Of a DNA stretch of 64,000 bases, positions 38,716 through 39,660 are shown one piece after another. The DNA is from Clostridia bacterium (GTDB lineage: Bacteria > Bacillota > Clostridia > Christensenellales > DTU072): the NCBI GenBank assembly GCA_017461065.1, contig JAFTZC010000013.1:3808-67807 (forward strand), in the 5' to 3' direction. The position numbers and the translations under genes were made by a program. Each line of letters opens with the position of its first letter. Positions within the stretch are counted from its first letter, which is position 1. Below the pieces are notes generated by a model. That model was not told the origin of the DNA and made no database searches. It saw nothing but the letters and a program-made list of their open reading frames with translations.

Positions 38716-39660
38716 ATGGATACTAAAATTAGGGCGCTACTAACCAAGCTTGAACCGATAAGTCAAAGATATCTTGAGCTTGTCGAGTGCTTGGAAAGTC
38801 CCGAAATAATTGCGGATAACAGGCTTTATCTACGCCTAAGTGACGAAAAAAACTCTCTTGAAGAAGCATATACTCTCGGAGAGTCGCTTAAGGTTGCAAT
38901 AGAAATAGACGACGAAGGCGAAATAGAAGCACTATACGCACTTCTCAGCGAAGAGTTAAGACCAAAAGACGAACGGGACCTACGCAGTGCACTACTCGAA
39001 ATCCGCTCCGAAAACCCACAAGCGGACGCCTTTAGGGCTGAGCTCCAAAAGGTTTATTTTGCCCTTGCCAAAAGGTGTGAGTACAAGGTGTCTTTGTCCG
39101 AAAACGAAGCAAAATTCGTCACCTTACTCATTGAAGGCAAGGGTGCTTACAGCTACCTAAAACGTGAAACGGGCGTCAATCGCAGCACGGGCGGAAAGGT
39201 AGGCAACGCCAACGTTTGGGTTTCGGTACTGCCAAAAATGGATGACGTAAGCATAGTAATTCGCGAAAGCGACCTACGCACCGACATATTCCACAGCTCG
39301 GGTGCAGGCGGCCAAAATATCAACAAAGTTGCCACCGCCGTTAGGCTCACCCACCTACCCACGGGCATAGTGGTAGTTGCCAAGGAAGAGCGCTCTCAGC
39401 TACAAAATCGCAACCGCGCACGCGACGTACTTTACGCACGCCTATACGCCCACTATCACGAGCTGGAAAACCGCAGGGCTCGCAAGGAGAGTTCCGGCGT
39501 TTACCAACGCGCGCGCAACAATCGCGTAAGGCTATACGACTACGACCACGAGAGCGTAACCGAGCTACGCACCAACCAAACCATAACGCTAAAGCAAGCC
39601 TACGACGGCGAGCTAAGCAAGCTTATAACCCCACTACACCTAAAGGAAAGCAAAGGCTAA
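38716..39660 (+). CDS. divergent class-I peptide chain release factor (RF1-like) paralog, GGQ-positive, without a recognisable PxT/SPF codon-recognition loop
   Basis: The GGQ region is intact ([44 protein letters not shown]). An RF1-like N-terminal helical domain is present. Where the PxT loop should be, the sequence reads [22 protein letters not shown]. Confidence 0.8.
   Translation: [314 protein letters not shown]

Follow-up and report, generated by a model that had tools for sequence, protein, structure and literature searches.

What would a release factor (RF) do on the ribosome if it has kept the residues that cleave peptidyl-tRNA and lost those that read the stop codon? The question is raised by a gene in a stretch of 64,000 nucleotides from a Clostridia bacterium (GenBank assembly GCA_017461065.1, contig JAFTZC010000013.1, positions 3,808 to 67,807), called the window here. 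The gene is located at positions 38716..39660 on the plus strand, starts with ATG and encodes an RF1-derived paralogue of 314 amino acids without the PxT tripeptide, as indicated by family library matches, alignments and an AlphaFold2 (AF2) model. Exactly this reading frame had been given in a preliminary description of the window, and every peptide quoted there is found in the translation. The protein, which we call the RF-like protein, has RF1 ancestry and the RF1/RF2 fold; GGQ is kept and all decoding motifs are lost. Sequence comparison suggests that it may be a functional codon-independent peptidyl-tRNA hydrolase, targeted and licensed by partner proteins, a proposal to which we assign a probability of roughly 0.45.

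The RF-like protein contains two Pfam domains that match above cut-off, PCRF at residues 68-156 (2e-12) and RF-1 at residues 177-285 (3.9e-31). Scores against the curated NCBIfam families all fall below the cut-offs: 194 bits for prfA (TIGR00019, cut-off 423), 191 for NF001859 (400), 145 for prfB (370), 72 for prfH (167) and 52 for ArfB (100). A phmmer search against all PDB chains aligned the protein with RF1 end to end. The AF2 model, built on a MAFFT alignment with canonical RF1s (predicted local distance difference test, pLDDT, 85.6), recovered the RF1/RF2 fold, and its top Foldseek matches are ribosome-bound RF1, RF2 and mtRF1. Its length, domains and fold agree with the earlier view that this is a full-length RF1 derivative rather than a protein of ArfB or PrfH size.

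Both the phmmer alignments with solved RF1 chains and the MAFFT alignment place a gap of 7 residues exactly at VQRVPxT. The deletion lies between R156 and S157 in a degenerate decoding loop (residues 151-174, 39166..39237, plus strand), the RIHTS position reads KVGNA in the alignments to solved and canonical RF1s, and the SPF tripeptide of RF2 is absent from the aligned protein. A shortened loop lacking PxT, SPF and RIHTS had been claimed from inspection, and proper alignment revealed no hidden PxT. At the tip of helix 5 (residues 95-105, 38998..39030, plus strand) the segment RAGTGGxEA has been replaced, as also reported before: GTGGxEA aligns with E--NPQADA, which is 2 residues shorter and in which the G-x-x-E codon-contact motif is gone. 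The segment aligned to the canonical switch loop and domain 4 (residues 270-285, 39523..39570, plus strand) replaces RIRTYNFPQxRVTDHR. According to the MAFFT alignment, about 25 residues of the helical hairpin of domain 1 are deleted in the clade to which the window's protein belongs, and 6 further residues are missing from domain 2. Of the statement that the N-terminal domain is still RF1-like, the presence of domain 1 therefore stands, but not its completeness. The GGQ catalytic tripeptide (residues 198-200, 39307..39315, plus strand) lies inside an invariant stretch of 21 residues, and the GGQ domain is near-canonical with about 46% identity to canonical RF1, which accords with the claim of an essentially canonical loop. 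In RF1 and RF2 the lost elements read the codon and couple this reading to the opening of the factor. Since the parts that reach the peptidyl transferase centre are kept and those that read the codon are lost, a codon-independent, GGQ-dependent hydrolase is the best supported function.

The deletions are not peculiar to the window. A word-indexed search of 5.8 billion proteins yielded 19 close relatives at 53-100% identity and five at 38-43%, with lengths of about 312-334 amino acids; canonical RF1s come next at 35-38% identity. The same deletions occur in 24/24 close relatives, and GGQ and its surroundings are invariant; besides the window's protein, the deletions were counted in 23 proteins at 39-69% identity. 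Because the deletions are shared in this way, they are not due to chance. When a profile of these 24 sequences was searched against 1.84 billion cluster representatives, two representatives of the family ranked first, followed by further PxT-less clusters. Among the best 150 matches, at least 63 further clusters at 50% identity have a single GGQ and neither QRVPxT nor RIHTS. A neighbour-joining tree groups the canonical RF1s in a single tight clade and spreads the PxT-less proteins over many long branches, one of which is the clade of the window's protein. Most PxT-less members keep the full domain 1, and GGQ was found in every one inspected. In some members GKGGQ stands in place of GAGGQ (the translation from locus L108, P0207, P0243 and P0244).

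The pattern of constraint in the PxT-less proteins is inverted relative to canonical RF1. Mean pairwise identities in canonical RF1 are 66% for domain 2, 54% for domain 4 and 59% for the GGQ-bearing domain 3, as compared to 26%, 25% and 47% in the PxT-less proteins. The loop from G-x-H to the next strand has no conserved residue among PxT-less proteins and varies in length by about 12 residues (0-12), which argues that no fixed codon is read, as this variation occurs among orthologues from the same operon. Members of the window's clade share a conserved remodelled loop, R-S-x-G-G-K-[VI]-G-N.

Every family member is known from metagenome-assembled genomes (MAGs) or metagenomes. All those with source names come from MAGs of uncultured Clostridia, Clostridiales or an unclassified 'bacterium', and a search with a profile of the N-terminal half for PxT-less members gave 102 proteins and no cultured organism. 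The source labels read 'PCRF domain-containing protein', 'peptide chain release factor-like protein' or, wrongly, 'peptide chain release factor 1'; the last is the JGI label of the PxT-less P0196 and P0209. A dedicated model for the PxT-less family was found in none of NCBIfam (June 2026), Pfam and PADLOC, and a full-text literature search turned up neither a full-length RF1 paralogue lacking PxT nor its operon. The RF-like/helicase module described below thus appears to be undescribed.

The gene opens a run of five in the window, which encode in this order the RF-like protein (314 amino acids), a helicase (803), a coiled-coil protein (237), a membrane protein (725) and a small hydrophobic protein (73). 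All four internal junctions are TAATG with a stop/start overlap of 1 nucleotide (39658-39662, 42069-42073, 42782-42786 and 44959-44963), which fits co-expression. Linkage to the partner genes was found in nine independent contexts (the window/L001, L004, L005, L006, L101, L102/L103, L104, L105 and L108, where L numbers denote loci), the neighbours beyond the module being otherwise unrelated. The same five genes lie beside aroC in L006, L004 and L005, where the RF-like proteins are 59%, 53% and 43% identical to that of the window. The same partners are present in L101, where P0328 (30% identical) adjoins a gene for a protein of 5,249 amino acids, in L102/L103, where P0353 (33% identical) follows a cellulase gene, and in L105, where the gene for P0196 overlaps the stop codon of a UMP-kinase-like AA_kinase gene located after rpsB and tsf. 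The module also occurs on a JGI contig (L108), the only one of 5 loci from a metagenome scan with the coiled-coil protein that was long enough for use. In L104 the gene for P0273 ends a fumarase operon and is convergent with an operon of helicase, coiled-coil, GLUG and 73-residue protein genes; the persistence of the linkage despite the altered orientation provides good evidence of a functional connection. When the window is compared with L101/L102, identities are 47% for the helicase, 49-54% for the coiled-coil protein, 28-31% for the membrane protein and 30-33% for the RF-like protein. No rtcB gene occurs in any of the nine contexts, no prmC lies beside the RF-like gene, and viral scans of IMG/VR gave no copy of the module. 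On these sequences, the RF-like gene with its conserved partner linkage constitutes a large family with a conserved module. In L105 (6752-10065) the slot usually taken by frr, directly after rpsB, tsf and the AA_kinase gene, which has the size of a UMP kinase gene, is occupied by the RF-like gene; no frr was seen in this 19-kb locus.

The first partner (39660..42071, plus strand), whose start overlaps the stop codon of the RF-like gene, is a UvrD-like helicase of superfamily 1 (SF1), as judged from motifs and library matches. It carries Walker A (GVAGSGKTN), DEVQDMTE, VGDALQMINP, NYRNT, TVSE-KGLER-TV and YVAVSRAK, and with Walker A, DExx and motifs III-VI in place it should be catalytically competent. 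Residues 1-150 match no family, and residues 630-803 are helical with weak, sub-threshold TPR matches. The protein belongs to no curated family: the HelD model NF041464 gives 35 bits (cut-off 419), the best PDB match is PcrA (E-value 1e-7), PDB matches to HelD have E-values of 0.003-0.006, and matches to GajB and DRT helicase models are weak, at most 56 bits. A single-sequence AlphaFold model of the helicase was of low confidence (pLDDT 33).

The second partner (42071..42784, plus strand), the coiled-coil protein, is the most conserved member of the module, as its identity to the L101/L102 proteins indicates, and ends in an invariant basic tail, W-A-x-x-R-K-x-K-x-x-K. Pfam, NCBIfam and PDB profile searches with it gave weak coiled-coil matches alone and nothing specific. 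The third (42784..44961, plus strand) is a putative single-pass membrane protein, assigned from sequence features and a GLUG Pfam motif that matches above cut-off in the L104 orthologue. It is predicted to consist of conserved cytosolic residues 1-150, a transmembrane helix at about residues 156-180 (nt 43249-43323) and variable extracellular repeats ending EVYW(E). The last gene (44961..45182, plus strand) ends in TAG; its translation is a small hydrophobic protein with 2-3 predicted membrane helices. It is also found in L004, L005, L006, L101 and L104 and is replaced by an HlyIII-family gene in L102 and by a gene for 112 amino acids in L105. Searches for partner functions (PDB profiles, Pfam, NCBIfam, PHROGs and PADLOC) returned weak helicase or coiled-coil matches alone.

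On this basis we propose that the RF-like protein would enter the ribosomal A site and that its GGQ would cut the nascent chain from the P-site tRNA with no codon signal required. Targeting and the trigger would be supplied by the products of the linked genes, namely the ATP-driven SF1 helicase and the coiled-coil protein with its basic tail, and the cytosolic domain of the single-pass GLUG-repeat protein could hold the complex at the membrane. The outcome would be that translation is released or aborted on ribosomes that have stalled (non-stop, jammed or collided), possibly during co-translational export. We infer that the protein acts on the ribosome, that its partners and not a codon recruit it, that it serves in rescue or abortion and that it works at the membrane; the last two of these steps are the weakest. 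ArfA, ArfB and BrfA each place a basic tail in the mRNA channel when it is empty; by analogy, the basic tail of the coiled-coil protein may speak for ribosome rescue. ArfB is entirely missing from Firmicutes (PMC6514570), which would leave the rescue niche open.

Several points weigh against the proposal. The case is built on sequence and predicted structure. No ribosome- or RNA-binding domain is recognisable in any partner by Pfam, NCBIfam and PDB profile searches, and the nearest relatives of the helicase are, weakly, the DNA helicases PcrA, UvrD and HelD. To our knowledge, extracellular repeat proteins are not part of any rescue system described so far. The fast evolution of domains 2 and 4 could simply reflect relaxed constraint. 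Finally, a canonical prfA was not found in the window or in the fetched loci, which represent a small part of each genome.

The closest alternative resembles ribosome-associated quality control (RQC): the helicase/ATPase would split or clear stalled ribosomes, and the RF-like protein would then hydrolyse peptidyl-tRNA on the 50S subunit. Mitochondrial mtRF-R (C12orf65) with MTRES1 is an analogue of such a route. The tight linkage to an ATPase gene, the loss of decoding elements that face the small subunit and the retention of the GGQ domain are all consistent with it. Complete domains 2 and 4, together with a full domain 1 in most members, would however be needless on an isolated 50S subunit, and the known GGQ proteins that act there are short; we regard this route as unlikely.

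Alternatively, the remodelled head may read a non-standard A-site signal, like mtRF1 (AGA/AGG), or in the manner proposed for PrfH (PMC1586002). The conserved loop of the window's clade would suit an altered specificity, as would domains 2 and 4, which are still RF1-like with high confidence in the AF2 model. Such a reader is nevertheless hard to reconcile with a loop that has neither a conserved residue nor a constant length among orthologues from the same operon, with the additional loss of the helix-5 tip and the RIHTS region, and with domains 2 and 4 being the least conserved parts of the protein. This makes altered specificity rather improbable.

A role in conflict, for example with phages, deserves a similarly low estimate. 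In such a system, detection of infection would fall to the surface protein or the helicase, and the RF-like protein would be the effector, ending translation early and leading to abortive infection. RF paralogues are argued to have been recruited often in conflicts (PMC6514570), the helicase weakly matches the GajB and DRT models (56 bits), and the RF-like and surface proteins evolve fast while the helicase and the coiled-coil protein are conserved. On the other hand, no GajA-like gene lies in the operon, so the pair required for Gabija is incomplete, and no PADLOC model is matched by the RF-like or the membrane protein. The module keeps one syntenic site by aroC in genomes where the identity of the RF-like protein ranges from 43% to 100%, and it occurs in lineages of visibly different sequence composition. 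Together with its absence from IMG/VR, this looks like vertical inheritance and not like a defence island.

That the gene is a decaying duplicate without function is very improbable: domains 1, 2 and 4 do diverge quickly, but more than 80 divergent PxT-less sequences retain an intact reading frame, no frequent frameshifts or loss of GGQ being seen, the surroundings of GGQ are invariant in the window's clade, and both operon linkage and translational coupling are conserved. We give practically no credence to the gene encoding the sole RF1 of the organism, terminating at UAA and UAG by some other mode of reading, as the three codon-contact elements are absent and unconserved, the score is under half of the prfA cut-off and no prmC adjoins the gene, even though it is the sole RF gene in the 64-kb window and in each fetched locus (a small part of each genome), the search for canonical prfA had no success, and queH lies downstream of both the RF-like operon and canonical prfA in related Clostridia.

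Stop codon usage bears on the same point. The 46 long open reading frames (ORFs) of the window end in TAG (7, or 15%), TGA (4) or TAA (35). The preliminary description was right that all three stop codons are used, but undercounted TAG since minus-strand genes were left out. Reassignment of a stop codon was considered and rejected: under table 11 the ORFs of the window are long and dense, three stops are used, and there is no known bacterial reassignment of UAG. According to a genome-wide screen, all known bacterial stop reassignments involve UGA (PMC8629427). With TAG at 15% of gene ends and no known UAG reassignment, RF1 activity is needed. The RF-like protein, with three codon-contact elements gone and an unconserved loop, cannot plausibly supply it, and stop usage together with the absence of known UAG reassignment gives a strong inference that a canonical RF1 is encoded elsewhere in the genome.

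Attempts to locate this gene gave the following. A scan of GTDB with the pattern AGGQN[IV]NK returned, among the matches listed, only canonical RF1s of unrelated taxa, those checked carrying QRVPxT. The accession blocks of family members (MBQ8177768, MBQ4072981, MBO7178156 and MBO5773215) showed no match with that of an RF1 from a rumen MAG (MBO7452731). The canonical RF1s P0030, P0091 and P0028 come from other lineages, where QueH is 44-51% identical to that of the window. In related Clostridia the canonical prfA directly follows a gene for a DUF1385-PrmC fusion, whereas the RF-like gene never does. The queH gene is located just downstream of the RF-like operon (window 47347-47937; L004 16483-17067), and in related Clostridia it follows canonical prfA at a distance of about 1.7 kb (L010 12912-13457; L019 5451-5996), with only 51% identity between the QueH proteins. 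Judged from gene order, the shared position could have arisen by chance or be left over from an ancestral prfA locus.

The known routes by which bacteria release peptides other than at normal termination are tmRNA, the borrowing of RF1 or RF2 by ArfA, BrfA or ArfT, ArfB, PrfH-RtcB and RQC. The RF-like protein resembles RF1 (prfA, TIGR00019) in its four-domain PCRF + RF-1 architecture, its fold and its GGQ domain, and shares the N-terminal motif PEIIADN with RF1 of gut Clostridia. It differs from RF1 in lacking PxT, RIHTS, the helix-5 G-x-x-E and a prmC neighbour, and in the domain 1 that is truncated in its clade. In the ArfA-RF2, BrfA-RF2 and ArfT-RF1/2 systems a partner licenses the RF on the stalled ribosome. 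The resemblance to these is one of concept, a partner replacing the stop codon and licensing a full-length RF, but they use the housekeeping RF and an adaptor of 50-70 amino acids, whereas here the RF would be dedicated and codon-blind and its partners are much larger. ArfB/ICT1 are codon-independent GGQ hydrolases that rescue ribosomes, an activity proposed for the RF-like protein. ArfB consists of a bare GGQ domain with a basic tail (about 140 amino acids) and acts alone; the RF-like protein keeps domains 1, 2 and 4 and lacks such a tail.

Vertebrate mtRF1 and mtRF-R (C12orf65)-MTRES1 are likewise RF1-derived, have a remodelled or absent decoding head and coexist with a canonical factor, but they are organellar and of independent origin, and the PxT and helix-5 regions of mtRF1 carry insertions instead of deletions. 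The partner helicase shares the UvrD-type motor core of SF1 with HelD, PcrA, UvrD and helicase IV, the similarity being very weak and its N- and C-terminal domains unrelated. In the conserved PrfH (RFH)-RtcB operon, too, a nucleic-acid enzyme is paired with a class-I RF paralogue that carries GGQ and whose decoding region is atypical (PMC6514570). PrfH differs in being about 200 amino acids long without domain 1 and in its RtcB ligase partner, where the RF-like protein has domain 1 and an SF1 helicase.

Bacterial GGQ families comprise RF1, RF2, ArfB and PrfH according to the survey of Burroughs and Aravind (PMC6514570). An extended version of the proposal, which we put forward still more tentatively than the hydrolase function itself, is that the PxT-less proteins represent a fifth bacterial class-I RF family. 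They would be the full-length, codon-blind catalytic subunit of a membrane-tethered, helicase-driven complex that dismantles stalled translation, or coupled transcription-translation-export, in Clostridia, which lack ArfB.

Some features of the flanking DNA concern expression of the module. The intergenic region between the divergent aroC and RF-like genes contains a perfect 14-nt palindrome, ATTACGCGCGTAAT (38651..38664), which is conserved in L004 and L006 and which its sequence makes a possible operator. It is followed by an extended -10 element, TGgTATAAT (consensus TGnTATAAT; 38701..38709, plus strand), with the same geometry in L004 and L006 (promoter/start region at about 9985-10003 in both). 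The ATG of the RF-like gene starts 7 nt past this element, with 6 nt between, and there is no Shine-Dalgarno sequence upstream of it. The equivalent in L005 is TGTTATACT, then 6 nt, then ATG (2577-2602). With an extended -10 directly before the ATG and no Shine-Dalgarno sequence, both subgroups of the clade probably produce a leaderless mRNA. More distant members of the family differ in that translation of the RF-like gene is coupled to that of an unrelated gene upstream. The predicted proteins P0021-P0024 carry an N-terminal extension of 13 residues (MLYFARAFCYTKY...) that runs through the promoter (L005 2560-2598); it is almost certainly a miscalled start codon, the true start being the ATG at L005 2600.

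In the 3' untranslated region (UTR) of the operon, short hairpins alternate with A[AG]CACTTATC, a sequence present there in four copies (45311..45393, plus strand). The window has 4 occurrences of the core CACTTATCRT where 0.19 would be expected by chance; three copies are in this 3' UTR and a further copy is at 36163-36172 (minus strand), upstream of a gene for a major facilitator superfamily (MFS) transporter. From its sequence, a hairpin resembling an intrinsic terminator would close the operon (45395..45421, plus strand). Scanning the window for Rfam families and tRNA genes gave no match. Elsewhere in the window, positions 1386-15279 hold a cluster of apparently secreted nucleic-acid enzymes: an Endonuclease I of 910 amino acids with Big_2/Big_3, an SNase-like protein of 451 and an OB-fold protein of 931. 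They flank genes that match ABC-transporter ATPase and solute-binding-protein families, and from its gene content the region may be a locus for scavenging extracellular DNA.

If the proposal for the RF-like protein is true, a dedicated full-length RF1 paralogue without the codon-reading parts would add a route of peptide release to those known, in a module that is conserved with motor and membrane proteins across many uncultured lineages of gut and rumen Clostridia. It would also offer a natural experiment on how a release factor can be licensed without a codon. For annotation, the PxT-less proteins match RF1 models and should not be counted as evidence that a genome encodes RF1; automated calls of RF1 presence or absence in Clostridia MAGs may be inflated by this family.

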